DNA of 32,000 nucleotides from Planctopirus limnophila DSM 3776 (GCF_000092105.1 NC_014148.1:480001-512000); one strand, 5' to 3'; positions 520 to 31,885 are shown, counted from the stretch's first letter. The notes: generated by a model from the sequence alone, not told the origin. Numbers and translations are program-made.

Positions 520-902
520 CTTGTTTCGGCAGAAGTTGCCATTCGCAGGGCTCGAACGACAGTTCGTCTTGGTGTGATCGAGCAATTGTGCCTACAAGCG
601 ATAAAAGCGGCACGAAACGCACGACTTTGATGTGAATCTGTATGGCCTGTATCGATGTTGCGGAATCAGTAAACCTGACGCCCTGAGCATTGGACCATGT
701 GTTGATGCGGTTAACGATTCCGATACGTTCGACGAGACCATGGCAGACGCTCGCGCTCAAGAGGCCTGCCAGTCGCGAATTTCGGAATGGATGCCGGTCG
801 GCATCATCCCCTTGACTCTGCAAGGCTCGCAGGGAGTTTGGCGGTGGGATATCGCCAGACTCGGGATTTTCCGAACACATGGAACGTGTGATTGAGGAGC
901 GC

Positions 903-8914: not shown

Positions 8915-9979
8915 ATGGCTGATGAACAGACCTGGCTTTCGACACTTTCACGTTTAAAAGAACCTCACCTCGGGCGAACTCTTGGCGAATTGAAGCTCGT
9001 TCGCGGAGTCTCGCTGGGGAGCGACAAAATTATTGTCTCGCTCGATGTCCCTTTCCCTGGCTTTGTCAAAGCCAACGCCCTCAAGGAACATGTTCGCAGT
9101 GCCACCCAGGAACTGGCCCAGGGCACCCCCGTTGAGTTCGATCTGGAATTGAACATCAAGGGGAAAAACTCGGGGGGATCGATTGGTCTGAGTGTGAAAA
9201 ACGTGATTGCCGTCGGCAGTGGGAAAGGTGGTGTTGGTAAGAGCACCGTTGCTGCCACGTTGGCTTATGGCCTGCAGGAACTGGGTGCCAATGTCGGGTT
9301 GATGGATGCCGACGTGTATGGCCCGAGTGTGCCGCATCTGGTCGGAGTGAATGAGCAACCTGTCGCTCTGGAAAGAACATCGCCTGACGGCAAGAAGATG
9401 ATGCGGATCCAGCCCGTGCTGGCTAGTGGGTTACCTACGATTTCCATGGGCTTTTTTGTCCAGGCCGATCAGGCGGTCATCTGGCGCGGGCCGATGCTGC
9501 ATCAGGCGATTTCCCAGTTTTTGCAGCAGGTCGACTGGGGCCCGCTCGACTATCTGATTATCGACATGCCTCCAGGAACCGGCGACGTCTCATTAACGCT
9601 ATCGCAACTTTTAGGCTTGGCGGGTGCGGTGGTTGTCTGCAGTCCTCAGCAGGTGGCACTTCTGGATGCCGTGAAGGCTGTGAGTATGTTCCGGCAGGTG
9701 AAGATCCCCGTCCTGGGGATGGTAGAGAACATGTCGGGTGAGATTTTTGGGCGCGGCGGTGCTCAGGCCAAAGCTGCTGAACTTGGCATTCCCTTTCTGG
9801 GTGAATTACCCATGGATGCCGGGATTCGAGTCGCTGGGGATGCCGGTGAAATCGCCCGCCTTGTCCGGGAAGAGAATCCTTCGCGGGATGCCCTGCTGAC
9901 CATCTGCGAAAATGTGGCTGAGCAGGTTGCCAAAAGCCTCCTCAGTGCTCCATCGATGCCGACACTGGAAATCCTCTAG
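8915..9979 (+). CDS. apbC: Mrp/ApbC/NBP35-family Fe-S cluster carrier ATPase
   Basis: Deviant Walker A VGSGKGGVGKST, DADVYGPS, IIDMPPGTGD and the ...VENMS... pattern. The N-terminal region is DUF59-like. Confidence 0.9.
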   Translation: MADEQTWLSTLSRLKEPHLGRTLGELKLVRGVSLGSDKIIVSLDVPFPGFVKANALKEHVRSATQELAQGTPVEFDLELNIKGKNSGGSIGLSVKNVIAVGSGKGGVGKSTVAATLAYGLQELGANVGLMDADVYGPSVPHLVGVNEQPVALERTSPDGKKMMRIQPVLASGLPTISMGFFVQADQAVIWRGPMLHQAISQFLQQVDWGPLDYLIIDMPPGTGDVSLTLSQLLGLAGAVVVCSPQQVALLDAVKAVSMFRQVKIPVLGMVENMSGEIFGRGGAQAKAAELGIPFLGELPMDAGIRVAGDAGEIARLVREENPSRDALLTICENVAEQVAKSLLSAPSMPTLEIL

Positions 9980-13280: not shown

Positions 13281-14420
13281 TTATCTGCTGTCGTCAGAGG
13301 CGAGGGCGGGTTTCGGTTTCGCAGCGAAAATTCGTTCGAGATACTGCTTGGTCACATCTTCCGGGATCACACCATCTGTGGGTATGAACTCAAACGTCTG
13401 GTCATCGAGTGGTTCATCGAGAACGACCTGAGAGAACTCCATCGAGAAGATAGGACGCAAAGATTTCTCGGGGCCGGCAGTGCGCTTGAGATAGAGCAGG
13501 CGGAGTGGGAAAAGTGTCTCGGCTGAGTAGGTGATACGAACGACCTCAGGAAAGAAGGGTAGCGTCGATAGAGGTTTGGAAGGAAACCATTTCGCAGGAA
13601 ATTCAGGTTTCCATTCCCCCTGGACATGGAAGACTTTGCCTTGTTCGGTTTCTTCGGGTTTGAGTGCTGTAAAGTTCATACAGCGCTGAATCGAGGCCAT
13701 GATCCCAGGGAGACCACCCAGCCCCAGTTCGGAAAGCATTAATGTTTCGGCGGTGCCACCCGCCGCTCCCGCATTGAGAATCTGCCGCACATCCCGGCGG
13801 GTATAGCGTTTGATGTCATCAATGACCGTGCGATTCCAGAGTGTTTCGCCATCGCAGACTTCGAGTGTTTCCCCCGTGATTCCGGATTTGAGTTTGAGCT
13901 GGGTCGTCAGTCGCAGCTTCAGTCCCTCAGCTTCATACCGACCCGTGGAGATTATTGTCTGCTCCCCAAACTGGACGAGTGTTTTCACATTCGCCTGAAT
14001 CGACTTCCGCCGGGCCAGCGAAACCTGGGCCTCTTGTACCAGTGCCAGCACTCGAACAGATGCCTCAGACGGTGCGAGTGCATTGGGAGCAAGTTCGCTG
14101 GGCGTGGTCGTCTCCAATGCCCCCTTGGAGCTGGATGCGGATTGATCGGCACTCTTTGCAGGCTGGAGAGGTTGAACAGAACCAGTCGCTCCACTCAACA
14201 GGGCGGGAGTTTGGCCTGCGCCGGGGACGGATCCAGGGAGGATTTGCGGCTCGGCTGCTTTTGTAAAAGCGGCCTGTTCGATGGCGTCCTTTTTTGACGT
14301 AACATTCTCTTGGCTATCAACTTGCGCGGCAAAGGCGATCTTCCGAAGCTGAGGTGTTACCGTCCAGATTCCTCCCATGACCACTAAGCCGGCGACGAAC
14401 AGAGCCGCGTACCTGTGCAT
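13281..14420 (-). CDS. Secreted or membrane-anchored hypothetical protein, possibly with a LolA-like fold
   Basis: The track ORF 13281..15242 is over-extended, because its first 270 codons overlap the divergent gene. A plausible start is MHRYAALFVAGLVVMGGIW (ATG 14420), or ATG 14480. An Ala/Ser/Pro-rich linker is followed by a beta-rich domain (...GRYEAEGLKLRLTTQLKL...CDGETLWN...). Confidence 0.55.
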   Translation of the reverse strand: MHRYAALFVAGLVVMGGIWTVTPQLRKIAFAAQVDSQENVTSKKDAIEQAAFTKAAEPQILPGSVPGAGQTPALLSGATGSVQPLQPAKSADQSASSSKGALETTTPSELAPNALAPSEASVRVLALVQEAQVSLARRKSIQANVKTLVQFGEQTIISTGRYEAEGLKLRLTTQLKLKSGITGETLEVCDGETLWNRTVIDDIKRYTRRDVRQILNAGAAGGTAETLMLSELGLGGLPGIMASIQRCMNFTALKPEETEQGKVFHVQGEWKPEFPAKWFPSKPLSTLPFFPEVVRITYSAETLFPLRLLYLKRTAGPEKSLRPIFSMEFSQVVLDEPLDDQTFEFIPTDGVIPEDVTKQYLERIFAAKPKPALASDDSR

Positions 14421-14762
14421 TGAGGCTCTTGTCTGTTTCTGCGTGTTTGTTGGGGTTGGTCGAGTTTGCTGATTATGCATTTCGTTCCCAAATTGACGGA
14501 TTTTCCAAAGCTGCATGCCCTGGAGTTCCGAAAACAGGTGTGTCAAGTGCTTTTGCGCGTGGCCTTCAGAGGCATTCCCGAACAGCAGACATCCCTTCAG
14601 GGATGCCGGTCTGGGGATGGTATGCAATTGAGGCCACGAGGTGAACGGGAAGTTCATCCGGAGGTAAAAGCATGTGCGCGTCATATGTTCGGACACGAGG
14701 TCTGTCCTATTTGGCAGCCCGGCGTCCCCAGGCGGTGCGTTGGATAGCAAAGAGGGGTCGCG

Positions 14763-16019
14763 ATGAAGTTTTACTTCCTGGCATTGGGGACGGTCGTCGT
14801 CGTGTGCGTCGGCTGCGCCATGGACGGACAGCAAGTGATGAACAAGGGCGAGTACCATGCTCCCCCTGCCGCTATGATGATGCGGCCGGGCCCCATGGTC
14901 GATGGCCCGGGACCTGGCGTGATGCCAGCACTTCCGACAGGTATGGGTGGCCCCATGATGGGCGGCCCGATGATGGGTGGTCCTGCTGGCGGGATGATTC
15001 CTCCCGGGATTCCCACCACGACTCAGGTTCGCTTCGTCGGGCCTGACGGCATGCACGTCGGCTGGCAGATTCCCGATGGATATGCTGAGAACCAGCTCGT
15101 GGCTCCTGCTCGATTCAACTTCCAGCAAGCTGCAACGTATCGCCTCAAGCTGACCAATATTCCTGGTCGTGCTGGTTTGAACCTGTACCCAACATTGCAG
15201 GTCTACCCCAGCCACCCGAATACAGTTGGCTACCTGTCTCACAACAGTGTACCACTGCAGATTACCGTTGAAGATCTCGATCAGGTCGAAAGCAACAACT
15301 TTGTCACCAAGGTGATCTACCTGCCCGATGCCAAGTATCAGGAACTGGCGATTGCCAACGTGGAAACGCTCGTTTCGACTCGGCTCGACCCAGGTGTGGA
15401 TCCCGTCCAGGAAGCTGACAAGCGTGGTACGATCATGGCGATCCTTCGCTTAGGCAACATGGATCTCGAAATGCCCGGTGCCCCAGGTGCTCCTGGTGCA
15501 ACAGTCGGCGGTCCAAACGGTGGTCTGAATCAGGTCGCTTACAACGTGGTTGATGGTGACAAAGGTCAGCATGTTCCTCCAATGCCTATGAGCATTATGC
15601 CCGGGTATGGCCCAGGTGTTCCCGATGCAATGATGGTCGCTGGCTATGGTTTGCCCGGACAGCCAGCAGGCAGCCCTTATGTGAGTGGTGTTGGAATGCC
15701 AATGTGGGGTCAACCCATCACAGGGACACCGATCGGACTCGCTGGCCCTCCCCACCTGCCTTATGGTGGTCCAGCCGGTCTCAAGAGCCACACCATTCGT
15801 AACCGTACCAAAATGGATATCCCAGAACCTGTGGATCACATGCTGATCGATGTTGAGCATGCCCCTGGTCTGAGCCTGCCAAAACCGGTTCGCTATGTCG
15901 AATACAAGGAAACTCATCCTGTGTACTCACCCGGCGAACTCAGCAACCCAGCCTGGAATGCCCCCGGCGCTGGAGCCGGTGGAGACGGTGCTTACTGCCC
16001 ACCCGGTATGCAACGATAA
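14763..16019 (+). CDS. Lipoprotein with Met/Gly/Pro-rich tracts; paralog of the next gene
   Basis: Lipobox-like [11 protein letters not shown]|A. Contains the tract [24 protein letters not shown] shared domain of about 150 aa ([35 protein letters not shown]) recurs in 16168..17019. Confidence 0.7.
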
Positions 16020-18926: not shown

Positions 18927-21900
18927 CTACTTCTCCAGAACCTGACCTGCCTCGATAAACTTGCGGAAGTCGAACGTCCCCTGGCCGGCGTCATAGGCAG
19001 CTTCCAGTTTGGAACGATCGACCACAAACGCGCCGCGGAACTCAGGCTCGTACAAGTCGTTCAGTGGTGCTCCAATCCGGACGGCATTGCCATTCGCCGT
19101 ATCGTAAGTCGCCCGGAAGAACTTGCAGGTCAAAAACACCACAAACGTATTGCTTCGAGTCGTCCCATTCTGCGACATCTTCGCAATCAGACGTTCCCGG
19201 GTCATCGGATCGAGTGCGCCATTGCTATGGTCAGTATCTGAACCGACTTCGAAGAGTAGCCGTGTATTCTGATCCAATGGATCGACGCTGCGAATCCATG
19301 AAGGCAGTGCAGGATTCCCGGCTCCCACTGTCGGAGTGGCACTAAAGCTGCGGAATGGGCGACTTCCCGGCAAACCGGGTAATCCATACTGCTGGCCACT
19401 ATCTCCATACCATGGATCAGCTTCCGAGTAATCTCTGTTGAACAGAAACTCATTCCACCAGTTGAGACCATCGATCGTACTGAGTGGAGGTGCAGAAACA
19501 TTGGTGGTGAGATCGACATTCACCACGCGTTCGTCATCCAGCCATGCTGCCAGCACTTCGGGATGCCGGATCGTATTGGGATTCAGCTTGCCTGGTACTC
19601 GATTGATGGAGTTCATGGCGGTCTCATTGCTGAGATTTTTATTGACCCTTGAGGGGACTTCCAGAAGTTCGAGAACACGGTGCCAGCGGTTGTGGTTATT
19701 CCCCGCTGGAGGCGTGGTACTTACAGGAGACTGATACAACGGCGCCAGGAACTTGGCTCCCGCCGTTCGCGAATACTCGATGAAATCGATCGCTCCATCG
19801 TTGTTTGAATCGTATTGCTCTTCGAGGTTCTGCTGACCGGCGGCATAGCTCTTTCGTGTATCGACCAGTCGTAACGTCAAATGCTTCGGACCAAACAACG
19901 GGATCAAAAACAGCTCACCCATATTCGCCAGATCGCGGTCAAAATGCCTTTGCAGTGCTGTCCATGTCACCAGCGCACCAGGGTTGGCTGCTCCAATCGA
20001 GTTGACATAAGGATCGAGTGGCGCTGTTTCGGTACCATCAGGCGGAGTTGGTGGTGTGCCATCCGGATGTTGAGTCAGGCTGGCAGCAGTTGCGTCGAGT
20101 GGCTGGTTTCGCTCAAAGGACCGCAGCTTATTGAGTTCTGTATCAATATTCGGATAAGCCGTCGATGGTTGAAGATCGAACTCTCGCAATCCAGTCACTC
20201 GCAATCGATCGACTTCCACCCATTCGTTGTCAGTCGCTGCCGTCGCATCAGCGGGACGGGTTCGCCCCAGGTACTGTCGGCGGTACAAAATCACATCCAG
20301 TGGGTCGTTGGCATTGGTAATCATGCTGTCTTCGAGAAGCCGGATACCAGCGGTCACAGCTCCGTATTCGTTGGCATCTCCTGCCATGAGCCGGTGCGTG
20401 GTGCCGTTTGTTGATTCCCGCCTGACGACATCGAGATCAAGCACTCCGTTTCGAGGTGCAATCCAGGTTCGATTGATCGTGAAATCTGGTGTCCCGCTTG
20501 TCCATTCAAAATCGACCTTCATCACACTTTGCATATCGGTCGGCTGTGCAGAAGCGCCCACGTCAAAGCTCGTTCCGCCAATCGTATACCGGCCATTCGG
20601 AGCAATCGTCCCCAGTTGCATTGTGAGTGCTCTGGCTTTGGAAAGGTCGGGTAACGTCATAGCGATGCGAGGCTGGACGACAATCTGGTAGTCACCATTA
20701 GTAAAGTCAATGTTATCCGGACCGGTGTTTGCCAATTCGACATACATCAGATATTGATCAGTCGTATCATCCCACTGAGTGGCCTGATGATCGACAGGGA
20801 CCATTGAGGCGTCTTCAACTTGATTGGCTTTAATGGCCAGCACTTCGTTAATCGCCAGACGCTGCCGCTCAATCCCATAAACCTGAGCATAGGTTGAACT
20901 GCCAGAAACTGTCGCAGAAGTGGGCAGGTTGGCATCGTCGACGTTCCAGCCATCAGAAAGGTCGATGTCGTAGACAAAGCGGGTAATCACTTCATCGCGA
21001 TCCATGGCATCGACATAGTTGACGGCAAACTGCGCCATCTCCCGGAGTTGATCCGGCGAATAAAGTGCAGAGGCCGGCTGGGTGGCCGCATTGAGGTTGT
21101 CGGCTGCTCCACCAAACAAATAGAGCAGGACATAGACATCGCGAGCCAGTCGCTGTCGATCCAGCCGCGCTTGCCGCTCTTGAGTGCTTGTCGCGATATT
21201 CGCGCCGGCATTCACTTCATGCTGCACCAATGGGCGGACTGTCGGGCTGGCTGCTGTGCCATCAATCACACTGTTGAGTGGAATGCGGCGGTGGATGCGT
21301 GCTGTGTTGTTATCATTTTCGATGATCTCCAACCACTTCCGCACAGGGCCACGCAAGGGATCTGCTGCTGAATAGGGCGCCACAGCACCGAACTGGGGAG
21401 GAAACACAAATCGTCCACCACTGGCTGTGTATTCCCAGGCTCGACTGATGCTTCGTGGCCACGAGAACTGCTTACGATCCGAGCTCACTGTCGTCAGCTT
21501 CGTGCGAATATCATCGGCACGAGTGCTGTTGCCTGTATTGAGATTGAAAGGGGCCAGATCAGTCAGTCGGGTTGCAACATTATATTCCGTGGCTTTTGCC
21601 TGACGCATCTGCAGGACGGCACTATCAAAAGCATCGAACAGGCTGTCATTCAGATCGGGAGTGTCGCGATAGTAGGCGGTTTCGTAAGGATCATCACCCA
21701 ACGTAAAGACACCGGCCAAGCGAGGTGCATTCGTGGTATTCCATTTCACGAAGGAATTCGTGTCCTGCCCGACCATCCGGCTGAAGCGGAACTGGTTGTT
21801 GAAGAAATCCAGATTTTTCACGTTCGTTGATAAGACATAAGATCCAACACCCATGAAATCGAGCGGCCACGCAAATGTCGAATTCAGTACGTTCGCAGCG

Positions 21901-23726
21901 ACTGGATATGGCCACGAGGTTGGATAGCCTGTGCCACCATTGGCAGAATCATTGTTATCATCACTGTTCGTCAGTCCTGCCCTAGGGAGTACAGTTCCAG
22001 TACCGGTCGCAACGCTTTGCAGCAGCGATTGCTCTCCATGGCGACCTGGATAAAGTGTCTCTATAACTGAAGGGGCACTGAACTTTACCCTGCCTAAGAG
22101 GATCATCGCCAATTCCATATTCGAAGCTTCCTTCCAGGTATTGACGATCGATGTAATGGGTGGATTTGTCGTCGGCCCAGGGTAACTCGCAGGCTGTGCA
22201 CCGAACATCTGAGAGTAAGGTGACCAATCGACACCACCTGCCACATCAGCAGTTCCCGGGCGGGAGTTGAAGACCCAGGACGGGTTCACTTCGGCAGGCC
22301 CTAAGCCTTGATTGGATCGCGAAAAGAATTCGAGCGAAGCCGCTGCACCGAGAACTCCTGCAGGTACTGCTCCCGTGGCACCATTGGGATTCGTCCCCAG
22401 TGCAGGCACTCCCAATGCCTGATTCAAAGCGAGATTTCCATGGGCATTCAGGTTGATCAGACTGTCCAGATCATAGATCGTGGCGGAAAAGAGGGGCACG
22501 AATGGGTTGCCATTAGCATCTTCCTGGACAGGATAATCGAGGTCGAGCCAGATCCCTTCTGGAATACCGTCGAGGTCATTATCAATGTCATATTCATAAG
22601 TGGCAGCATCGGTGAGGAACGTACCGGAAGAAGTCGCGATTCGTTCCCAGATGCCCTGACGACCGGTCTTAAATACTGGGACAGATGTCGTGTAGCTTTC
22701 ATCCATCGGCTGCATGGGGAACCCCTGCGTCATCGGCGGATTCAGTGATGGACTCGCCGCCTCAGCATTTGTCAGGAAGCGACTGACGGCAGAAGAACCC
22801 TGCACCTGGACTCGATGATCAGGGTGCGGCCTCAAGGAGCGGCTACCCCATCCGTTATAGTCATACCAGCGCTGACCAGCAGGATCTGTCGCCAATAATG
22901 GATCGTTCGTACCAGGCCTTCGCATGTACTGAGGTCTGTGATAAGAAGGCACGATGACCGGGACAGACAATGCTGGATTGGTCGGGTGTGGTATATATCC
23001 CCGATAAGCCAGGAATGCGGTATTGATATCAGGGGCTGTGTAATCTCCACCACGGCGGGGAAGGAGCAGTGGATCGGCACTTCGCCAGTTATTGGCAGCC
23101 GGTGAGACGTTCAGTGACAGCGGGTTGTATTCGGTTTGCCCGGCAGTGATGGTCGAAACGGTCGCTCCGGTGGAAACATTGATGCGGTCTCCAGTTCCTG
23201 CGAGGAGGTTAAAATTACTGACACGGACAGGAGCCGCCACATCGGCAATCAGATAGTTATCAATGGCCAGAGTGCCGGCATTCCACGACATACGCATCGA
23301 TCCGCCATCAAACGGATGCCGGTCGGGATACTGGTAAACGACACGACCTGTCCCGGCTGAATCAACGCGTTGCACATTCCCCATGGCGTTGGTCACCATC
23401 GAATGAGTGCTCGACCATAACGCACTGCTGCGATACTCGGGCCGGGTGCCAACGACGATCTGTTCCAAAGCGAAGTCGAATAGAACTTCGCCAGTCAGTC
23501 CCAGTTCCTGGGGAGCTTTAGCCGCTTCCGAAAAATATTCGGCATTACTTTGCTCCTGCCGGGCGAAGGTGAAAAAGATCACCCCCAGGATCGAGAGCAA
23601 TCCCAGCAGCACAAGAACGATCAGCAATGTCGATCCGCGGCGAGGATGTGCGATGGTTGCTGGCTTTCGATCTTTGCCAAGCTGAACAACCTGCTGAGCC
23701 GATTTTGCATGAATCATGTTTTTCAT
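18927..23726 (-). CDS. Giant (about 1599 aa) GspK-like minor pseudopilin
   Basis: ORF extends to 23762. The best start is ATG 23726, with AGGAGA at 23733-23738. RRG|STLLIVLVLLGLLSILGVIFF is a pilin-type helix without Glu+5, which is the GspK hallmark. IYDLDSLINLNAHGN (22428-22475) and RVPGKLNPNTIRHPEVLAAWL (19542-19601) resemble T2SSK-family motifs. It is the last gene in the F-G-H-I-J-K order. Confidence 0.75.
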   Translation of the reverse strand: MKNMIHAKSAQQVVQLGKDRKPATIAHPRRGSTLLIVLVLLGLLSILGVIFFTFARQEQSNAEYFSEAAKAPQELGLTGEVLFDFALEQIVVGTRPEYRSSALWSSTHSMVTNAMGNVQRVDSAGTGRVVYQYPDRHPFDGGSMRMSWNAGTLAIDNYLIADVAAPVRVSNFNLLAGTGDRINVSTGATVSTITAGQTEYNPLSLNVSPAANNWRSADPLLLPRRGGDYTAPDINTAFLAYRGYIPHPTNPALSVPVIVPSYHRPQYMRRPGTNDPLLATDPAGQRWYDYNGWGSRSLRPHPDHRVQVQGSSAVSRFLTNAEAASPSLNPPMTQGFPMQPMDESYTTSVPVFKTGRQGIWERIATSSGTFLTDAATYEYDIDNDLDGIPEGIWLDLDYPVQEDANGNPFVPLFSATIYDLDSLINLNAHGNLALNQALGVPALGTNPNGATGAVPAGVLGAAASLEFFSRSNQGLGPAEVNPSWVFNSRPGTADVAGGVDWSPYSQMFGAQPASYPGPTTNPPITSIVNTWKEASNMELAMILLGRVKFSAPSVIETLYPGRHGEQSLLQSVATGTGTVLPRAGLTNSDDNNDSANGGTGYPTSWPYPVAANVLNSTFAWPLDFMGVGSYVLSTNVKNLDFFNNQFRFSRMVGQDTNSFVKWNTTNAPRLAGVFTLGDDPYETAYYRDTPDLNDSLFDAFDSAVLQMRQAKATEYNVATRLTDLAPFNLNTGNSTRADDIRTKLTTVSSDRKQFSWPRSISRAWEYTASGGRFVFPPQFGAVAPYSAADPLRGPVRKWLEIIENDNNTARIHRRIPLNSVIDGTAASPTVRPLVQHEVNAGANIATSTQERQARLDRQRLARDVYVLLYLFGGAADNLNAATQPASALYSPDQLREMAQFAVNYVDAMDRDEVITRFVYDIDLSDGWNVDDANLPTSATVSGSSTYAQVYGIERQRLAINEVLAIKANQVEDASMVPVDHQATQWDDTTDQYLMYVELANTGPDNIDFTNGDYQIVVQPRIAMTLPDLSKARALTMQLGTIAPNGRYTIGGTSFDVGASAQPTDMQSVMKVDFEWTSGTPDFTINRTWIAPRNGVLDLDVVRRESTNGTTHRLMAGDANEYGAVTAGIRLLEDSMITNANDPLDVILYRRQYLGRTRPADATAATDNEWVEVDRLRVTGLREFDLQPSTAYPNIDTELNKLRSFERNQPLDATAASLTQHPDGTPPTPPDGTETAPLDPYVNSIGAANPGALVTWTALQRHFDRDLANMGELFLIPLFGPKHLTLRLVDTRKSYAAGQQNLEEQYDSNNDGAIDFIEYSRTAGAKFLAPLYQSPVSTTPPAGNNHNRWHRVLELLEVPSRVNKNLSNETAMNSINRVPGKLNPNTIRHPEVLAAWLDDERVVNVDLTTNVSAPPLSTIDGLNWWNEFLFNRDYSEADPWYGDSGQQYGLPGLPGSRPFRSFSATPTVGAGNPALPSWIRSVDPLDQNTRLLFEVGSDTDHSNGALDPMTRERLIAKMSQNGTTRSNTFVVFLTCKFFRATYDTANGNAVRIGAPLNDLYEPEFRGAFVVDRSKLEAAYDAGQGTFDFRKFIEAGQVLEK

Positions 23727-23950
23727 AATGTTCTCTCCTGCCAGAATTGGCAGCGGCATCAATCAAGATGCCCATCGACGGTGCTCGAACACTTCGTTCA
23801 CGAGTTGCTTCGGCCCGCAATCTCGAATGGTATCGATCAATATTTCTGCTAGATATTGTTGATCAAGCCAACCCCAGTTGCGTGCACTCGATATTTGTTA
23901 ACGAGATTCGAATAGCACTGCAGGTCGCGGATATCTGAATTTTTTTATGG

Positions 23951-25651
23951 TTAAGGAGTCAGGTCACATTGCATGGTGACTGTTCGTAGTTGCTGGGATG
24001 TCGGGTCTAAAAATCGAACCGTGATCTGTATTAAGCGAATTGGGCGACGGTTATCGACAGGAGTCCATTCGACCAATCCATCATTGATCGGAGTTCCATA
24101 GACGATGGGTAGTGTCAGTGGAATAGCGGCTCCAGCGGCATTGTTCGTCCCGGCACTGGCTCCTGAGCGAACGAAGAAGACAGGATCGCCGGGAATGCTG
24201 GAGACACCCCCGGACAGTGCAGGCAATACAGCGCCTGCCGTCGTTCCCGGAGTAAATCGCGGCAATTCGAAGGCGGACGCTGTCGCAGCCGCAATGTAGC
24301 GTCTGGGAAGCAGGGGAGGATTTTCAGCCGGATCTGACGTGATGGTCGCCAGTCGAACATCCTTTGCCCAGGTATCAAAAACATTGTTTCCACTTGGTCC
24401 ATCAGGCCCAAAATCAATATTCAGGCGACGATCCGGATTTCCGGTGACTGCAGGATTGGTGCTATAGAGCACACTTCCTGGACCGCCGATATCAACAAAG
24501 GCTCCTAAACCTCCATTGGCAAAGTCATCCCAGACTTTCACGTCGAATGAAACCACATTCGCCAATAATAGATCTTCACCGCGCCGACTGCCATTCGCGG
24601 AATTGTGCTGGAGTGGATCCACAACTCCCGTGGCGGCATCAACCGTCAGGCCCGCCGTGGCCTGATTCATGGGGCTCGGCGTTGCTGTAAATGGATATTG
24701 AAAAGCGACATTCGAGGTTTCTTCCATCGTGTAGCGACCAAAAAACACACCGGATAGAAACTCACGCGGTTTACCGGCATCAGCCGTTCCATCGGCGAAT
24801 TCGAAACCAAAGCGGCTGGTTGGAAGTTGCAGATCAGCCAGAGTATTAAATCTGACCCCATTGATAAACGGCGGTGGCATGGTCTGGTTGAAGGTTCGAG
24901 AACTGATTGGGCGTGCCGAAAAATCAAAGTCCTTCCAGAATGTCGAAGTAGCAGATGGTGTATATCTGGTGGTGGCTCCTGATGTGGAATCGAACAGCGT
25001 GTTCGTGGTATTGCCGTCTTCATGAGGCTCAATTTCGGCAGTTGAATCGGCGGGCTGACGAACCAGCATGACACGTCGATAAAGAGCCCCTGGCCGACCG
25101 GTGGTGCCGCGCCGCATAAACAGCGAAATCTCGGCTGTCGAACTGAGTGACGAGAGGTTACCCAGGTCGCCATCATCATAATCGGGTTGATTCAGACTGT
25201 TGCCCACCTGCAGCGCACGCCCGGAGTAGCTGTCCGTGTCGGCTAAAGAGTTAATCGTCGCAGTGATCTTGCCCGTGAACTCCAGCACATCATCAGTATC
25301 ATCGAACGGGTTGTTTTCCGAGATATAGAAGTAGCCGAGCATATCGCTCTCTTCTGTATTCACGGTATCTGTATATCCCGTGGGCCGGGCAGCCCAGGGC
25401 CAGACATAGCGATAGGTGCGGTTATTGAGGTCTTTGGTGATGATCGTCTGGATCGATCGCGCCCGCTGATCGTTCTCCATGATGCCGCGCTGGGTTGAGA
25501 CTGTCCCTGCAGCGATCTGAAAAACCTGCGCAAAGAGCGTCATCATCAACAGGACAAGTGCGACCGAAACCAGCATTTCGACCAGTGTAAAACCGGCGGA
25601 ATGCCCCTTTCGATGGCCTTGTAGTCTTGGTTGTTGAGTTAAAGAGTTCAT
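23951..25651 (-). CDS. GspJ/PilW-like pseudopilin, 566 aa
   Basis: Class III signal ...GHSAG|FTLVEMLVSVALVLLMMTLFAQVF with Glu+5. The start ATG directly abuts the upstream stop (TAA-ATG at 25649-25654). Confidence 0.7.
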   Translation of the reverse strand: MNSLTQQPRLQGHRKGHSAGFTLVEMLVSVALVLLMMTLFAQVFQIAAGTVSTQRGIMENDQRARSIQTIITKDLNNRTYRYVWPWAARPTGYTDTVNTEESDMLGYFYISENNPFDDTDDVLEFTGKITATINSLADTDSYSGRALQVGNSLNQPDYDDGDLGNLSSLSSTAEISLFMRRGTTGRPGALYRRVMLVRQPADSTAEIEPHEDGNTTNTLFDSTSGATTRYTPSATSTFWKDFDFSARPISSRTFNQTMPPPFINGVRFNTLADLQLPTSRFGFEFADGTADAGKPREFLSGVFFGRYTMEETSNVAFQYPFTATPSPMNQATAGLTVDAATGVVDPLQHNSANGSRRGEDLLLANVVSFDVKVWDDFANGGLGAFVDIGGPGSVLYSTNPAVTGNPDRRLNIDFGPDGPSGNNVFDTWAKDVRLATITSDPAENPPLLPRRYIAAATASAFELPRFTPGTTAGAVLPALSGGVSSIPGDPVFFVRSGASAGTNNAAGAAIPLTLPIVYGTPINDGLVEWTPVDNRRPIRLIQITVRFLDPTSQQLRTVTMQCDLTP

Positions 25652-27058
25652 TTATTGCACATCTCGAATAGAGACTGGATTGAGCGGAAAGACATCCACC
25701 ACATTGGGCATGATGACTGCCGATCCATCATTCGCATTTTCAAACACGCGGCCCTCAATACGTATGCGGGCATAGCTGGTCCCTGAGCCTGTCGAAAGAC
25801 CAGTGGGGTAAAAAGAAGCGGCTGGAAACTCAGCAGGCTTGGCTGCCGCCAGACTGGTGAAACTTTCTTCTAATTGGGAGATGCGATACCAGCGCATGCG
25901 GCCGGCATCGAGGATATAGCCACCCTTCTTCCACTTGGGAGGATCGTTCTCATCGTATTTGACAACGATGACCGAAGATGCTGCGCCGGAGGTATCGACA
26001 TACGAGGCGAAGAACGCTCCCTGAATCCGTTCGTCATTGATGCCAAACTGGCGGCGGAAGAAGACCACCGCATCCGAATTGCGTGTTCCATCGGCCTTAA
26101 CGCGCGTTGTCGTCAGCCAGGTGTATCGCAACTCCTGTGTTTCGATACGAATCTTGACTGGTGAAAAGCCCAGTGCACCGACGAACGACAGGCTCGTCGA
26201 TGTCGGCGCGGGTGTCCCGCTGATTGGACGAACTTCGACGCGACGCATATCCGCATCGAACATCACCATCCGGCTGGAAGTAACGGCCGGATTGACGATC
26301 TGACTCAAGCCTGTCTGGTCAGCAAAGGTGATCGTAAAGGTGCCGTCTCCGTTATCAACGGGAGCAGCAAAATCGACCGATTCCACCTGCAGGAGCCAGC
26401 TGTCGGGCAATGTTGCGATCTGGCTTGCCTGCAATAACGTCGTGGCACCGCCCGTAAAACGCGGCACGACAGTGAGCGCGTTGGTTCCATCATTTCCGAA
26501 AAAGCGACCAGCATTGGGTGCCAGGACATCCGCCATGCGGAACGAACCCAGGGGATCCACCACATAACCATTGGTAATGGAAACTGGCTGCCAGATCGTC
26601 CCATCAGCCGCTGTAATGGGCCCGGTACTGGCCCAGACAGGTTCCGTATTTCCCAGGACACCACTGGTGCTGCAACCAAAGACCAGGCGTGGAAACTGTG
26701 AACGAGTGATGGGGTTACTGGGCAATATAAATGTGGGGCGCGCGGGATTGTCGGTGATGGATGTCGCCGTCAGTCCCGGTTGCCAGAGTGCAGCGCCGGT
26801 GTTGACCTGACTAAGTGCATTCCGCATTCCGCGAACATTGTAACTCAGAATGGCCGAGTTGGTCATATTGGTCGCAGCGACCGACTTCAGCACGCTGATC
26901 GGGAAGAGGGAGGCCAGACCGACAATACCAATCCCCATAATCATCAGCGAGATGAGAACTTCACTCAGCGTCACACCTGCACGAGCATTTGAGCCGTGAG
27001 TTTTGTTTGGCCGATAGTTAGTTCTGGTAGACCGAGGGAGCGGAAGTAATGTTTTCAT
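25652..27058 (-). CDS. GspI/PilV-like pseudopilin, 468 aa
   Basis: ...NARAG|VTLSEVLISLMIMGIGIVGLASLF with Glu+5, similar to PilV G|FSLIEVLVAL..IGLLGL. ATGA overlap with the upstream gene at 27055-27058. Confidence 0.65.
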   Translation of the reverse strand: MKTLLPLPRSTRTNYRPNKTHGSNARAGVTLSEVLISLMIMGIGIVGLASLFPISVLKSVAATNMTNSAILSYNVRGMRNALSQVNTGAALWQPGLTATSITDNPARPTFILPSNPITRSQFPRLVFGCSTSGVLGNTEPVWASTGPITAADGTIWQPVSITNGYVVDPLGSFRMADVLAPNAGRFFGNDGTNALTVVPRFTGGATTLLQASQIATLPDSWLLQVESVDFAAPVDNGDGTFTITFADQTGLSQIVNPAVTSSRMVMFDADMRRVEVRPISGTPAPTSTSLSFVGALGFSPVKIRIETQELRYTWLTTTRVKADGTRNSDAVVFFRRQFGINDERIQGAFFASYVDTSGAASSVIVVKYDENDPPKWKKGGYILDAGRMRWYRISQLEESFTSLAAAKPAEFPAASFYPTGLSTGSGTSYARIRIEGRVFENANDGSAVIMPNVVDVFPLNPVSIRDVQ

Positions 27059-28137
27059 TTACCGGCTCCTTCACCAGTTTCGGCATACAGCAAGCGATCA
27101 CTCCCTGCTCCGTATCCCAATTCATGCACAGAAACTGCTCCCGTGCGAGTTGCCACACTGACAAAGTACTTATCGCCTCGGTTTTCGCTGTCTTCCAGTT
27201 CGGCAGCAGAGCCGCTTTCCCAAGCCAGTCGATCCAGATCGGCATCTTTTTGTGTTCCAACGTAGAGATGTAGTAAACCCGCTGTGGCGGCCTGACCAAT
27301 GACGGTGCCACTGGGCGAGAACATGATGTCAATCTGGTTGCTATAGCGAGGGGGATTGACTGAGCCATCTCGCCAGGCGGTCGGTAGAATATTTCCCCTG
27401 GCAGAAGCTGTCGCGAGATTGTCGATATTCCGGGAGCATCGATCGAGATGCACGACCACACCTGCGGGCAGAAAGACGGGCTTCTGACCCACAAACGGTA
27501 CCGGATCGAGTTGCAGGTCATAGGTTGTGACACCATCCCGGCCTGCAGCGAAGGCCTCAAGTGTTCCTGAAGGTGTTTCTGCTGGTAAACGGAAGGGAGT
27601 TGTGAGCCGTAAACGAATCTGGCCGGCACTGGTATCCAAGGTTGCTCGATACCACGTCCCCTGGCTTCCTTTAGGAATCCGAATGCGAATGTCATTAGGA
27701 AATCGCTGGCGAGAAATGAGATTGGACCAGTTCGTTCCTGCCGCTTCAGCCACCACTCGAACATCGGTCGAAGTCAGGTTCGATTCATCCCGTCGCAATT
27801 CAATCGTTCCATCCGACCATAGCTCACCAGGTTGGATATACACCATACTTGTAATCGTGCGGTCATTATTCGGACTCTTGATGAAACGGACACCCACGGG
27901 TGCTTTAGCATAAATGGCTCGGTCACGCGCACCATTGAGGAACGACTGTATCTGCCTGGCACCTGCGCGGACTTTGTCACCATCGAGGCTCAGTCGCACC
28001 ATCGTCGCAGTGATGACCAGGAGCGTGACCAGAATCGAGATCACAACCAGCAGTTCGATCAGCGTAAAGCCGCGTCGCTCAGAGATTCTCTGAACCGGCT
28101 GGCGACCGATCGGCAATATTACGTATTTAGCAAACAT
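27055..28137 (-). CDS. GspH/FimT-like pseudopilin, about 360 aa
   Basis: ...ERRG|FTLIELLVVISILVTLLVI, followed by AGARQIQSFLNGARDRAIYAKAPVGVRF, which is the GspH/FimT-type helix pattern. ORF extends to TTG 28146. ATG 28137 has GGGAGA 9 nt upstream. Confidence 0.65.
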   Translation of the reverse strand: MFAKYVILPIGRQPVQRISERRGFTLIELLVVISILVTLLVITATMVRLSLDGDKVRAGARQIQSFLNGARDRAIYAKAPVGVRFIKSPNNDRTITSMVYIQPGELWSDGTIELRRDESNLTSTDVRVVAEAAGTNWSNLISRQRFPNDIRIRIPKGSQGTWYRATLDTSAGQIRLRLTTPFRLPAETPSGTLEAFAAGRDGVTTYDLQLDPVPFVGQKPVFLPAGVVVHLDRCSRNIDNLATASARGNILPTAWRDGSVNPPRYSNQIDIMFSPSGTVIGQAATAGLLHLYVGTQKDADLDRLAWESGSAAELEDSENRGDKYFVSVATRTGAVSVHELGYGAGSDRLLYAETGEGAGK

Positions 28138-28161
28138 GAGAGTCAATCTCCCGTCCTTGAA

Positions 28162-29274
28162 TCAGCGACGGTTGTTGAAGTTCGAAATATCATCCAGTAA
28201 ATCATCGCGAGATGCCGGCAAGCCAAGTCGCCCTGTGGTGGTATGCGGCTCCTGCAACCCCAGCACTTTTCCCGGCCCTGCGGAAACGATGAGAGGGGTA
28301 AAGAACGTATCGAGCTGGTGATAGTTATTACGAAAAGCCGCATCGCTTTGACCCAGCCCGAGCAGCATCGATTGAATCCGGCCGTAGCCATCATCAGGAT
28401 CGACACCCAAGGGATCGAGATTGGTGCCGGTGGATGCTGGCAGTTCAGGAATCAGTACAAGGCCATACTGTCGATCAATTGTGCCACTCGGATAAGTGAG
28501 TGGTGGGTTTGAATTGCTTGCTGTTGCCAGAGTCGCTGTGGTGCCACTCGTCGTATTGCGGACCAGAGCCGTCGGCCAGCGATAGAACCGCAATGGTTCG
28601 CCCCAGGCATCAATAAACTCCAGGTGACCATCGCCGTCGGTATCCCGGACTTCGTTACTCGAAAAATTATCGGGACTGACGGGTGGTAATCCAAAAACCT
28701 GGGCTTGGGTGAGGGCGTAATAAAGTAGTGCCGATGATTCGGTTTCGACCTTATGATTGGCACTGATATAGGCTGTTGATGTCAACAGGGGATGACTCGA
28801 TGGCAACTCGCTGAATGACTGAGGAAACGTCTGTTTCAGCAGCATCTTCCGGGCAAGGACTTTCATCGCCGGGATATAGTTATTGGTGTTCGCATTACTG
28901 ATCCCCAGATCAGCCCGCACCTGCCGGAAGTATCTCTGGTTGTTTGTCCCCTGCTCCAGGGCTTTATCAACAGCGCGGTTAAACGATTCCAACCGCTGCT
29001 GAAGAAGGCCATCGATTTTAAGAATTGTCGCCTGTGTCGCTCGCTCACGCGCTGTAAGAATCGTATTCCCAAAAACAGCCGCAAATATCGAAATCATCAG
29101 CAGGATCAGGCCGATCACAACCAGCAATTCAATGACGGTAAAACCTGCCCGGCGATGTTGCGAACCGCGAGTACGAGGCGGGAAGCTGGAATTCGACGAA
29201 ATTCTGTTCGCGCAACGGGCAATGGCGCCAGTTGGTGAACTACGAAAATCGAATTGGTGAAACGGATGGATCAT
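28162..29274 (-). CDS. Second GspG-like pseudopilin, about 370 aa
   Basis: ...HRRAG|FTVIELLVVIGLILLMISIF. Also DTDGDGHLEFIDAWGEPLRFY (the DAWG.P motif of G-type pseudopilins), SAGPGK, and a C-terminal LDDISNF resembling the GspG DDIxNW end. ORF extends to TTG 29316, and the first ATG is at 29274. Confidence 0.7.
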   Translation of the reverse strand: MIHPFHQFDFRSSPTGAIARCANRISSNSSFPPRTRGSQHRRAGFTVIELLVVIGLILLMISIFAAVFGNTILTARERATQATILKIDGLLQQRLESFNRAVDKALEQGTNNQRYFRQVRADLGISNANTNNYIPAMKVLARKMLLKQTFPQSFSELPSSHPLLTSTAYISANHKVETESSALLYYALTQAQVFGLPPVSPDNFSSNEVRDTDGDGHLEFIDAWGEPLRFYRWPTALVRNTTSGTTATLATASNSNPPLTYPSGTIDRQYGLVLIPELPASTGTNLDPLGVDPDDGYGRIQSMLLGLGQSDAAFRNNYHQLDTFFTPLIVSAGPGKVLGLQEPHTTTGRLGLPASRDDLLDDISNFNNRR

Positions 29275-29363
29275 CTGAGCATCCCGCGATCGCCCCGTGG
29301 CTATGACTAGAAGCAAGCTATATATAAATCAAGAACATGACAGATAGAGGTTCGGCTCAGCGC

Positions 29364-30422
29364 CTAGCGACCACCCAGTGTTCCCGAATAAAAGTTGGTA
29401 ATGTTATCGAATTCCGCCTCGCGGTCTGCCACACTCACAGCCCCGGTAATTCCCGGTGCCCAGACAGCAGAAGGAATATCGGTGGCAGCGTAACCTGGCA
29501 ATGGTGTAGCGACTTCAGGTTGGAACGGCCCACCCGGCCCGAAAGTCTGGTCATACCCGGGAGAGATGATCTGGAAAGATTTAGCATTCCAGGCTGACTT
29601 ATTGGCTTTATCCTGTGCATAGGGGAGGATAGGGTAGTTAGCTGAGTTTCCCTGGGGGCCGTAAGTTAAAATGCCATACTTACCATTCGTGGTGGCTGCG
29701 TAAAAATAAGGAGTACCCTGCCCTGAGATGGGATCGACAATTTCTGGCAGATTGTCGCCATCAAGATCGGTATAGCGACTTGCAGGATGTTCGTAGTAAG
29801 GAGTGGTGCGCGGGCCAGTTCCACGTCGGAAGGGGGCAGCCGGGTCTTTGGAAAAACCAATGGCCCGCCATAACGTGGTGGAACCTTCAACTGTCTTTTC
29901 GTGTAAACCACCCAGGAAGAAGGCCAGGCATTCCGCATTCGAGAGCACAATCGCACTCCCACCAGCCGTCCCATCGCCATCGATATCCGGAGCACCAGCG
30001 GTATAGGCAAAGTCAAACTGTGGCCAGAACTGACGGATAATGGCTTTGGACTCGCGAATCTCTTGAGCCGTGTACAAATTCGGTGCCACCCCACCATCCG
30101 CCGGAGTGGCCCAGAGTGTCGCTGTTTGTGGAATGACAATGCGGCTGGGGGGATGGATTCCATACTCTTTCTCAAAGGCGACACAGGCCGATTCGATTGC
30201 ACTGATTTCTGTACGCACCTGAGCAATGGTTGCTCTGCGGCGGGCGCCGTTAATGGCAGGCAAGAGGAGAGCGATCAGTATCGAGATCACCACAATGACA
30301 GCCAGCAATTCAATCAGCGTGAAGCCCGCACGAGGCCCGGAGGAGCCACCGTCTGACTGTGTACTGGAATCGCATCCGCGCCCGGCAAAACGAAGGCTGT
30401 AGGGGTTGGTTTTCAGGAACAT
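29364..30422 (-). CDS. gspG: GspG-like major pseudopilin, 352 aa
   Basis: GPRAG|FTLIELLAVIVVISILIALLLPAINGARRRATIAQVRTEISAIESACVAFEKEYG is colinear with the GspG N-terminal helix. The C-terminus has ISPGYDQTFGPGG and FDNITNF. GGAG lies 6 nt before the ATG. It is the first gene after gspF. Confidence 0.75.
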   Translation of the reverse strand: MFLKTNPYSLRFAGRGCDSSTQSDGGSSGPRAGFTLIELLAVIVVISILIALLLPAINGARRRATIAQVRTEISAIESACVAFEKEYGIHPPSRIVIPQTATLWATPADGGVAPNLYTAQEIRESKAIIRQFWPQFDFAYTAGAPDIDGDGTAGGSAIVLSNAECLAFFLGGLHEKTVEGSTTLWRAIGFSKDPAAPFRRGTGPRTTPYYEHPASRYTDLDGDNLPEIVDPISGQGTPYFYAATTNGKYGILTYGPQGNSANYPILPYAQDKANKSAWNAKSFQIISPGYDQTFGPGGPFQPEVATPLPGYAATDIPSAVWAPGITGAVSVADREAEFDNITNFYSGTLGGR

Positions 30423-30625
30423 GATGAACTCCAGTCGCAGCGATGATAGCCGGTGGTCGATGGATGAATTTCTTGGGTTACAAACAATTCGTTCAAGGCG
30501 AAGATCGCAAAGGGCTGTTCAGACACTGGAAACACCTCGCCCCTGAAATCAGAGATTTCTCTGATGAATCGAGGCTGGCGACATGCTTCCGTGTCAGTTT
30601 CCACCCAGTGCAGTTTCAACCGGGA

Positions 30626-31885
30626 TCAGGACAGGTCGTTCAGCAACTGAATCAGAGGCATGAAGAGGGCAATCACAATGAAGCCCACAATCAAGCCCAG
30701 CACCACGACCATGAGTGGTTCGAGCATGTTGATCAGACCTTCGACCAGCACGCCCACTTCTTCGTCGTAGACATCGGCGACTTTATAGAGCATGTTGTCG
30801 AGTGCTCCCGTTTCTTCACCGACGTCGACCATATTGACGACGATCTCGTCGTAAATTTTTGTTTCTCGGAGAGGAACAGCCATCGATTCCCCTTCGCGAA
30901 TAGCCGCATTGACGTGCTCGAAAGCCTTCACGAACACGGCGTTTCCAGCGGTATCACGGGTAATCGACAATGCTTCCAGAATCGGTACACCTGAGGCCAC
31001 GAGTGTTCCCAGCGTGCGGCACGTTCTCGCGATAATCGACTTTTTCAAGATCAGCCCCAGCATGGGAATGCGGAGTGAAATCCAGTCGACAACAAAGGCC
31101 CCGGTTTTGTTCTTTTTGATAATCTTGATCAGCAGCCAGATCGAAATCGGAATGACGGGCCCCAGGTACCAGTAGTTCACGACCGCACTACTGGTGCCGA
31201 TCAAGACTTCCGTCATCATGGGCAGTTTCGTACCGAAGTCGTCGAAGATCTTTTTGAACTTCGGGATAATCCAGTACATAATGAAGCCCACGATCAACGT
31301 GGCCACAGTGATCACCGCTGCCGGGTAGATCATGGCGCCTTGAACTTTACGCTTCAGGCTTTGCTGCCGTTCTTTGAATTCTGCGAGTCGCTGGAGAATC
31401 ACTTCCAACGCACCGCCTGCTTCACCGGCCCTCACCATGTTCACGTAGAGATTATCAAAAGCTTTGGGCTGCTTACCCATGGCTTCCGATAGAGTGCTAC
31501 CGGATTCAATATCTTCGATGACGCCCATCAAGGAGTTCTTAAGGGCACCAGGCTTGGCCTGCACTTCCAGAATTCGCAGACTTCGAAGAATGGGTAGACC
31601 AGCATCCTGAAGTGTCGACAATTGCCGTGTAAAGGTGCAAAGCTGCTTGGCACCTACCCCACCAATCGTGAACGTTCCCTTCTTGCGGGCGTTGGGTTTC
31701 TTCTTCCCATCCTTGGCTGGGCTTGTGTCTTTTTTCTTCTTGGTGCGACCTTTTTCAGAGATCTTGGTGACATAGAAGCCACGCTCGCGGATCTTCGATT
31801 GAGCCTCCTGTTCGGTGGCGGCTTCAATCGTATCCTTGACTTCCATGCCCTTGTTGTCCATCGCTTCGTACATGAAGGTGGGCAT
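30626..31885 (-). CDS. gspF: Type II secretion / type IV pilus platform protein GspF/PilC
   Basis: Two T2SSF repeats are present (FTRQLSTLQDAGLPILRSL...YVNMVRAGEAGGALE and CRTLGTLVASGVPILEAL...MVDVGEETGALD), with 3 TM helices. AAGGAA SD. A Lys-rich linker lies at 31676-31753. Confidence 0.92.
   Translation of the reverse strand: MPTFMYEAMDNKGMEVKDTIEAATEQEAQSKIRERGFYVTKISEKGRTKKKKDTSPAKDGKKKPNARKKGTFTIGGVGAKQLCTFTRQLSTLQDAGLPILRSLRILEVQAKPGALKNSLMGVIEDIESGSTLSEAMGKQPKAFDNLYVNMVRAGEAGGALEVILQRLAEFKERQQSLKRKVQGAMIYPAAVITVATLIVGFIMYWIIPKFKKIFDDFGTKLPMMTEVLIGTSSAVVNYWYLGPVIPISIWLLIKIIKKNKTGAFVVDWISLRIPMLGLILKKSIIARTCRTLGTLVASGVPILEALSITRDTAGNAVFVKAFEHVNAAIREGESMAVPLRETKIYDEIVVNMVDVGEETGALDNMLYKVADVYDEEVGVLVEGLINMLEPLMVVVLGLIVGFIVIALFMPLIQLLNDLS

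Follow-up and report, generated by a model that had tools for sequence, protein, structure and literature searches.

Type IV filament machines, among them pili, competence pili and type II secretion systems (T2SS), are usually accessory and built of small subunits. We analysed a 32,000-nucleotide stretch of the Planctopirus limnophila DSM 3776 chromosome (GCF_000092105.1 NC_014148.1:480001-512000, hereafter the window), where seven genes, Plim_0407 to Plim_0401, occupy the minus strand at positions 18927-31885. They encode a platform protein (F) and six proteins with prepilin signals (G1, G2, H, I, J and K), and three ATPase genes precede them beyond the window's right edge. We found that Plim_0410-Plim_0401 probably constitute the motor, the platform and the full subunit set of a Planctomycetia-specific type IV filament machine descended from type IVa pili (T4aP), working by the mechanism set out below. 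The original prediction, made from the window sequence, had given the genes a T2SS label and had proposed that they form a type IV filament of a distinct class, in place of the short piston of proteobacteria. The latter proposal is supported; the T2SS label is not.

Every one of the seven co-directional open reading frames (ORFs) was found at its predicted coordinates, and exact-sequence matching identified F, G1, J and K as Plim_0407, Plim_0406, Plim_0402 and Plim_0401. F (30626..31885, minus strand as for all the genes that follow; 419 aa) is an inner-membrane platform protein of the PilC/GspF family. Downstream of it lie G1 (Plim_0406; 29364..30422; 352 aa), a large GspG-like prepilin and candidate shaft subunit, and its paralogue G2 (Plim_0405; 28162..29274; 370 aa from ATG, 384 aa from an upstream TTG). 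Three genes at the positions of minor prepilins follow: H (Plim_0404; 27055..28137; 360 aa; GspH/FimU position), I (Plim_0403; 25652..27058; 468 aa; GspI/PilV position) and J (Plim_0402; 23951..25651; 566 aa; GspJ/PilW position). The giant terminal subunit K (Plim_0401; 18927..23726) has 1599 aa, or 1611 aa from a TTG. The product lengths first proposed for the six prepilin-like proteins (352, about 370, about 360, 468, 566 and about 1599 aa) match these ORFs, and F to K agree with independent public gene calls (419, 352, 370, 360, 468, 566 and 1599 aa). Relative to GspG/H/I/J/K of E. coli K-12 (145/169/125/195/327 aa), the size ratios are 2.4 for G1, 2.6 for G2, 2.1 for H, 3.7 for I, 2.9 for J and 4.9 for K, so the description of the subunits as 2-5 fold oversized is accurate.

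H and I overlap as ATGA and I and J abut as TAA-ATG, both confirmed base by base, and translation of H, I and J appears to be coupled. The other intergenic gaps measure 203 bp (F-G1), 89 bp (G1-G2), 24 bp (G2-H) and 224 bp (J-K). K is the final gene of the operon and faces a convergent DUF11-repeat gene downstream. The 224-bp J-K gap (23727-23950) contrasts with the coupled H, I and J genes and is shorter in relatives (68 bp in Schlesneria, 130 bp in the more distant locus L086); K may therefore be transcribed from a separate promoter in Planctopirus. According to Operon-mapper, cited in a 2023 transposon sequencing (Tn-seq) paper, K lies outside the operon. Scans for sigma-70 promoters and intrinsic terminators gave the same counts as shuffled expectation, and Rfam and tRNA scans of the window gave no match.

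The translations bear the six class III signals originally described: G↓FTLIELL, G↓FTVIELL, G↓FTLIELL, G↓VTLSEVL, G↓FTLVEML and, in K, G↓STLLIVL (arrows mark predicted cleavage). Glu+5 is kept in G1, G2, H, I and J (orthologues in which the signal motif was found). Its absence from K, also noted at the outset, holds in P. limnophila and its orthologues: position +5 is Ile or Val in all 54 of the 54 examined, and the RRG↓STL(L/M)I(V) signal is retained. Glu5 in five subunits and its lack in the last is the pattern of GspG-J versus GspK. G1 (26.9 bits), H (25.6), J (23.2) and I (21.4) score above the 21.2-bit cut-off of the Pfam model PF07963 N_methyl, with G2 marginally below (19.8); the cut-off of TIGR02532 (16.3 bits) is exceeded by G1, H and J. 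By their class III signals the proteins thus qualify as predicted members of the type IV pilin/pseudopilin superfamily.

Beyond the signals, recognisable similarity fades quickly. Pfam and NCBIfam matches of G1 to J are confined to the first 25-70 residues (N_methyl, the N-termini of GspG/H, PilV and the Verru_Chthon D/C models). No Gsp pseudopilin model (GspG/H/I/J/K) reaches its cut-off for any of the six subunits, the hits spanning the N-terminal 30-70 residues. Profile hidden Markov models of the K, G1, J and I families, searched against all PDB sequences, found the pilin N-terminal helix or nothing. When 27-36 orthologues apiece of K, J and I were scanned with Pfam, the additions past the N-terminus were a weak LTD signal in K and a weak T2SSJ signal in J. 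When family profiles were aligned to single E. coli GspG/I/J/K sequences with hhalign, the alignment was at the N-terminus only. The original prediction had stated that a lack of significant hits past the N-terminal helix would count against it, and the Pfam, NCBIfam, PDB-profile, hhalign and Foldseek searches returned essentially that result. Orthology to the Gsp families is thereby refuted, but not the proteins' identity as pilins.

We next consider the positions of the subunits, for which family profiles were run without filters on the five pseudopilins of E. coli. The G1 and G2 profiles choose GspG (E 4e-18 and 1e-12, the latter with a weak extra match on a SAGPDGE.G motif), H chooses GspH (E 2.6e-10, plus a weak second stretch) and J chooses GspJ (E 2e-7; a 'Y.lrn..LyR' strand gives a second stretch, i-E 0.027). 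These choices, which come mainly from the first ~65 residues and weak globular motifs, lend modest support to the GspG-K order first assigned; I and K are ambiguous. Predicted cleavage falls at G33/F34 in G1 (mature protein ~319 aa), G44/F45 in G2 (~326 aa), G23/F24 in H, G28/V29 in I and G20/F21 in J. The GspG match of G1 is limited to its N-terminal 60 aa (Pfam, NCBIfam). G1 and G2 are paralogues, as their families align by hhalign at 99.5% over 173 columns, globular motifs included. H has a weak Pfam GspH match in its globular part (E 0.015). I, which retains Glu+5, matches the PilV model over its N-terminal 56 aa only (E 6.8e-6, under the cut-off); it can be called the GspI/PilV counterpart by position only. 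Pfam T2SSJ is touched weakly by 2 of 36 J orthologues. Four things thus carry the reading of the six genes as a G-G-H-I-J-K set: their class III signals, the distribution of Glu5, the order of the genes together with their apparently coupled translation, and similarity over the N-terminal ~65 residues.

An AlphaFold2 (AF2) model of G1 (pLDDT 87) has a 52-residue N-terminal helix (residues 36-87) followed by a beta-sheet, a predicted layout typical of pilins. Foldseek against the PDB gave no significant neighbour for this model, only helix matches of 32-35 residues to GspG and PilA1 at E>2. In the model, the additional mass of G1 seems to be interleaved with the pilin fold and not appended to it. 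A globular domain shared by G1, G2 and H with the DUF1559 prepilin family was considered and rejected, the high hhalign probabilities stemming from the helix only.

The operon extends past the right edge of the window, and contigs with an identical F carry three ATPase genes upstream of it. Two encode PilB-like proteins with MshEN and T2SSE domains: B1 (565 aa), upstream of pilT, and B2 (Plim_0408; 570 aa; 8136-9848 on contig L001, to the right of the window). Between these two pilB genes lies T (Plim_0409; 370 aa), a T2SSE-only protein of the PilT family, which passes the PilT/PilU model TIGR01420 (439 bits versus a cut-off of 319). The original prediction had pointed to this flank as the place to look for gspE, gspD and a prepilin peptidase; the ATPases are there, in a pilB-pilT-pilB arrangement, and no linked secretin was found. 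In phmmer searches of the PDB, the full-length best match of B2 and B1 was PilB of Myxococcus xanthus/Geobacter (560 and 480 bits), with lower scores for Vibrio EpsE/GspE structures (418 and 405 bits). The best solved relative of F is M. xanthus PilC (274 bits; Pfam T2SSF E 1.8e-63). In BLASTP searches of about 80 loci with the E. coli proteins, the ±10 kb around K contained no homologue of GspC, GspD, GspL, GspM or GspO. Since the PilT cut-off is passed, the best matches are to PilB and PilC, and GspC/D/L/M/O are missing within 10 kb, we consider the motor T4aP-like and not that of a classical T2SS. B2 also passes the model of the MshE-type cyclic di-GMP (c-di-GMP) binding motif (59 bits versus a cut-off of 38) and B1 fails it, which suggests that c-di-GMP may control one of two non-redundant, individually essential extension ATPases.

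A genuine T2SS could still be envisaged, with G1/G2 as a periplasmic pseudopilus, H-I-J-K as its cap, and exoproteins or surface lipoproteins pushed through a secretin encoded elsewhere. Its bulk would fit an enlarged periplasm, and it would be essential as vital envelope or nutrient-acquiring proteins depended on it. Public annotation calls F and G1 'type II secretion system protein', the best NCBIfam models are GspF for F (392 bits) and GspE for B1 (610 bits), and the profile choices of G1, G2, H and J, as well as a K that lacks Glu5 like GspK, point the same way. So does the GspG-like SAGPDGE.G motif of G2, to which a 'DDITN'-type C-terminal motif can be added by eye only. However, all Gsp equivalog cut-offs are missed (GspE, 630 bits: B1 610, B2 617; GspF, 424 bits: F 392), a conserved PilT-family retraction ATPase sits inside the cluster, its two PilB-like ATPases, which bear MshEN N-domains, align full-length with T4aP PilB, and GspC, D, L, M and O are not linked. 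Together with the evidence on PilM and PilQ-like secretins given below, this makes a T2SS unlikely in our judgement, though it is the most serious competitor of a T4aP-descended machine.

Conservation of the locus was assessed in 80 related loci, comparing the window proteins by BLASTP and judging order where the flank suffices. Essentially all related loci with enough flank share the order B2-F-G1-G2-H-I-J-K and similar sizes, in dozens of Planctomycetaceae genomes. The complete B1-T-B2-F-G1-G2-H-I-J-K layout is kept in Schlesneria paludicola and in the more distant genome of L086 (K of 2057 aa); pilT between two pilB genes is conserved in L085 and L086, and the B2-to-K segment is kept in about 45 further loci. 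Orthologues measure 272-416 aa for G1, 311-563 aa for G2, 329-509 aa for H, 400-595 aa for I, about 500-880 aa for J and 1530-1868 aa for K in the 80-locus comparison. In a scan of one genome per species, relatives of K were found in 296 genomes.

One could suppose that the long ORFs stem from faulty annotation or assembly or from gene decay, with chance hydrophobic segments posing as class III-like N-termini. Only the absence of recognisable domains speaks for this. Identical proteins occur in independent assemblies and sequencing runs, full-length orthologues with conserved motifs are found in many genera (28-77% identity), the AF2 models are confident, and the Tn-seq phenotype points to functional genes. 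As order, sizes and the Glu+5 pattern are conserved across related loci, chance and artefact are ruled out; we regard this explanation as already refuted and give it practically no weight.

Directly 3' of K, on the same strand, many related genomes have a gene for a DUF1559 (SBP_bac_10) protein that bears a canonical prepilin signal (e.g. L014:15282-16388, L081:15333-16400, L078:15472-16596 and L032:15088-16296). A strict motif test found it in 23 of 53 loci, and BLAST found it in more; P. limnophila has no DUF1559 gene directly after K. This placement beside K in relatives hints that the hugely expanded planctomycetal family of DUF1559 prepilins may be a client of the machine.

K begins with the RRG↓STLLIV signal lacking Glu+5. 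Its full-length homologues number more than 145 and measure 1530-2013 aa; they come from Planctopirus, Schlesneria, Gimesia, Fuerstiella, Calycomorphotria and numerous metagenome-assembled genomes, all 'hypothetical' and none with a Pfam domain. K itself has no NCBIfam match at E<=0.1 and no Pfam family apart from a weak LTD signal, which the Pfam scan found in 4 of 27 K orthologues. The AF2 model of K(400-1599) (pLDDT 80.7, pTM 0.86) gave nothing at E<0.09 in Foldseek against the PDB, the top match being a lamin-tail Ig domain at E 0.09; near residue 1000 K has a predicted Ig-like domain resembling a lamin tail, and at its C-terminus a beta-sheet. An acidic motif, D.D.D.DG..E...D (residues 380-397; 22536-22589), has Asp residues that are invariant across 31 homologues, and from its resemblance to known sites of this kind it may bind calcium. 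Residues 1306-1317 (19776-19811) form a textbook 12-residue EF-hand loop, DSNNDGAIDFIE, in a region without majority consensus in the K-family alignment; the UniRef label for K is 'EF-hand domain-containing'. A profile of 42 GspK family sequences was compared by hhalign with the whole K family and with seven K sub-regions. It gave 6% probability over 20 N-terminal columns for the family and 31% for the best sub-region, the N-terminus. The K motifs AQFAVN.VDAMD.D, GK.N.NT and TTRSN.F.VF had been likened to GspK by eye; this likeness is unproven, as the profile comparison fails beyond the N-terminus.

Published Tn-seq data (Rivas-Marin et al. 2023) bear directly on the role of the locus. Plim_0401-0408 and Plim_0410 were classified as essential, with insertion indices of 0-0.0056 versus about 0.13 for neighbours (F 0.0056, J 0, K 0.0006, all called essential), and pilT (Plim_0409) as 'unclear' with an index of 0.022. 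Elsewhere in the genome, pilM (Plim_0076) and the adjacent Plim_0077/0078 are essential, and the A24 peptidase Plim_1841 is borderline, curated essential. The table gives as non-essential the Tad cluster (Plim_0794-0798), a secretin paralogue (Plim_3839) and further E, F and PilT paralogues. Since no gene of the operon follows K, a polar effect cannot account for its depletion. In that paper the locus is labelled "unknown function, related to secretion" and the six proteins are not recognised as pilins. The locus and its essentiality are thus already published; we found no paper treating Planctopirus proteins as pilins in the literature searched, where the identity of the genes as a complete giant-pilin set with a T4aP motor is undescribed.

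These data cut both ways for a T2SS. The guess 'related to secretion' by the 2023 authors themselves favours it, as does a precedent for Tn-seq essentiality in Vibrio cholerae (PMC7771236), no such precedent being known for T4aP. On the other hand, the essential partner annotated elsewhere in the genome is PilM, not GspL, and a strain lacking three PilQ-like secretins is viable, with the fourth paralogue, Plim_3839, remaining.

The locus might also encode an ordinary T4aP for adhesion, twitching or DNA uptake, with large, fast-evolving pilins, the essentiality reflecting polarity, toxic intermediates or Tn-seq growth conditions. The pilB-pilT-pilC arrangement and the T4aP best matches would be expected from such a pilus, and modular or oversized pilins are widespread (PMC8179133). 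In Rhodopirellula baltica, possible counterparts with neighbouring tags, annotated as pilT (RB12773), pilB (RB12774) and pilC (RB12781), have been treated as ordinary pilus genes. Yet ten contiguous genes are depleted of insertions, including the terminal K, which is polar on nothing, and unlinked pilM and its neighbours are depleted too. Moreover, depletion is weakest in pilT, whereas the reverse would be expected if unretracted pili were toxic. The cluster also has no small PilA-type pilin and no PilY1-type protein. An ordinary pilus therefore seems to us improbable, more so than a T2SS.

Several results weigh against a T4aP-descended filament machine. NCBIfam Gsp and Pil scores are near-equal for B1, B2 and F, and all lie under the equivalog cut-offs: for the PilB model TIGR02538 (676 bits) B2 scores 634 and B1 601 bits, and for the PilC models F scores 361 and 350 bits versus a cut-off of 700. 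No secretin is linked to the operon; PilM-N-O-P, the PilQ secretin and the PilD peptidase were found neither in the window nor in the related loci. K has no N_methyl match in the Pfam scan and could be a membrane-anchored partner that is never cleaved nor built into a filament. As the globular parts show no significant likeness to any known pilin family or solved structure, the pilin identity of the subunits rests on their N-terminal ~65 residues, gene order and secondary structure. We know of no organism in which T4aP are essential. The essentiality fits a T2SS-like job better, by analogy with V. cholerae, where T2SS genes are essential by Tn-seq, and that of the genes upstream of K could partly reflect polarity on K. 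P. limnophila PilQ-like genes are dispensable singly and in triple, the viable triple deletion being described in a 2025 tools paper. Finally, one supplementary file of Boedeker et al. 2017 contains no Plim_0401, 0402, 0405, 0406, 0407 or 0076 tags.

A T4aP-descended machine nevertheless remains the reading that we favour, and it would work as follows. Two PilB-type ATPases, one with a c-di-GMP-binding MshEN motif, would act on the PilC-type platform. After cleavage by a prepilin peptidase, the ~34-kDa GspG-like G1 and/or G2 would be polymerised into a shaft. A four-protein H-I-J-K tip complex, made in coupled translation and formed by positional equivalents of GspH/I/J/K, i.e. FimU/PilV/PilW/PilX, would prime and cap this shaft. 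The Glu5-less giant K would stand at the apex, uniting in one polypeptide the cap role of GspK/PilX and the role of a bulky calcium-binding adhesin like PilY1. The PilT-family ATPase would allow retraction. The choice of major pilin and the placement of H to K at the tip are our inference.

As for the cellular role, our best guess is a fibre that spans the envelope or lies at the surface, perhaps the 12-nm fibres or the 'press-stud' of the large crateriform structures. P. limnophila bears dextran-binding 12-nm fibres on these structures, and their "press-studs" join the outer and cytoplasmic membranes (Boedeker et al. 2017, PMC5394234). Loss of the machine would then, again as a best guess, be lethal through secretion or uptake or through envelope integrity. 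More tentatively, and with rather less confidence than we place in the machine itself, the proteins might represent a separate Planctomycetia-specific filament class whose giant subunits form the envelope-spanning core or the fibre of the crateriform structures and are indispensable for life.

Compared with known systems, the machine appears to work like a T4aP/T2SS hybrid within the type IV filament superfamily, with the class III signals and a PilT above its model cut-off. As in the T4aP of M. xanthus and Geobacter, its best solved relatives, PilB, PilT-family and PilC genes are clustered, four minor pilins are encoded together with the last lacking Glu5, and an essential PilM is annotated elsewhere in the genome. 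The very large, probably calcium-binding protein at the end of the set also recalls PilY1 (PMC7541494). In contrast to T4aP, the P. limnophila cluster has two non-redundant PilB paralogues, two ~34-kDa GspG-like paralogues instead of a small PilA-type major pilin, and minor pilins of 2-4 times the usual size. No hit to the PilY1/Neisseria_PilC beta-propeller family was detected in the cluster (Pfam, NCBIfam), the giant K itself bearing a pilin-like N-terminus; the genes are Tn-seq-essential, and the PilB and PilC equivalog cut-offs are missed. With the T2SS pseudopilus of E. coli and Vibrio it shares a platform gene followed by the major subunit(s), H, I, J and K, the lack of Glu5 in the last subunit only, N-terminal ~65 residues of G1, G2, H and J closest to GspG, GspG, GspH and GspJ, and a capacity for Tn-seq essentiality. 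It differs in having PilT, in lacking linked GspC/D/L/M/O, in subunits 2.1-4.9 times larger, and in globular parts that Pfam, NCBIfam, PDB profiles, hhalign and Foldseek do not recognise.

Modular pilins (Streptococcus sanguinis PilB/PilC, enterotoxigenic E. coli CofB, Thermus ComZ; Raynaud et al. 2021, PMC8179133) likewise combine a pilin module with extra mass, which is thought to be displayed at the filament tip. Unlike these, every P. limnophila subunit is enlarged, the presumed shaft pilins included, and the extra mass has no recognisable domain except for the weak Ig-like LTD signal in K. A resemblance to the Verru_Chthon cassette had also been proposed. The architecture as proposed is similar, a very large protein coming after several of prepilin type in a lineage of the PVC superphylum, and the best or near-best sub-threshold hits of H and J, over their first ~70 residues, are cassettes D and C. 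Yet in searches with the A-D models (TIGR02600, TIGR02598, TIGR02599 and TIGR02596), H scores 42.1 bits against D (cut-off 70) and J 29.2 bits against C (cut-off 256.5), both N-terminally only, and K has no match. Membership in the cassette is thus not borne out.

Other genes of the window were also noted. A DUF1559 protein (7705-8721, minus strand; PF07596, E 1.2e-25) has a longest ORF starting with ~110 residues of hydrophobic segments and no obvious G↓FTLIE, so that either its start is mis-set or it is an atypical membrane-anchored member. A 418-aa Pro/Gly/Met-rich protein with no family match (14763-16019, plus strand) overlaps in antisense the 5' part of the long ORF 13281-15242 (minus strand), which in reality probably starts far further downstream. 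Plim_0396, a small and apparently neighbouring hypothetical gene, is curated-essential in the Tn-seq table. An OmpL-like beta-barrel porin (879-2213, plus strand; BBP2, E 4.7e-63) and an Mrp/NBP35-type Fe-S cluster carrier ATPase (8915-9979, plus strand; ParA/NUBPL, E 6e-84) are ordinary housekeeping genes unrelated to the pilin operon.

What sets this locus apart is a whole subunit set that is 2-5 times oversized, combined with a T4aP-type motor of two PilB and a PilT, and essential by Tn-seq in a genetically tractable planctomycete. Recognising G-G-H-I-J-K as pilins offers a mechanistic frame for six proteins that the 2023 paper had given as functionally unknown. The gene set Plim_0401-0410, with pilM and its neighbours (Plim_0076-0078), bears on the composition of crateriform structures and fibres, on the passage of macromolecules across the envelope and on the lineage-specific essential genes behind an unusual cell plan. 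The planctomycetes considered here lack FtsZ and have an enlarged periplasm. If the more tentative reading of a separate filament class is true, the pilin globular folds, including that of a 1600-residue tip protein, would be new to structural biology. The machine would then be the first type IV filament with an essential housekeeping role, needed, for example, to take up or secrete macromolecules, to tether the outer membrane to the cytoplasmic one, or to bud.

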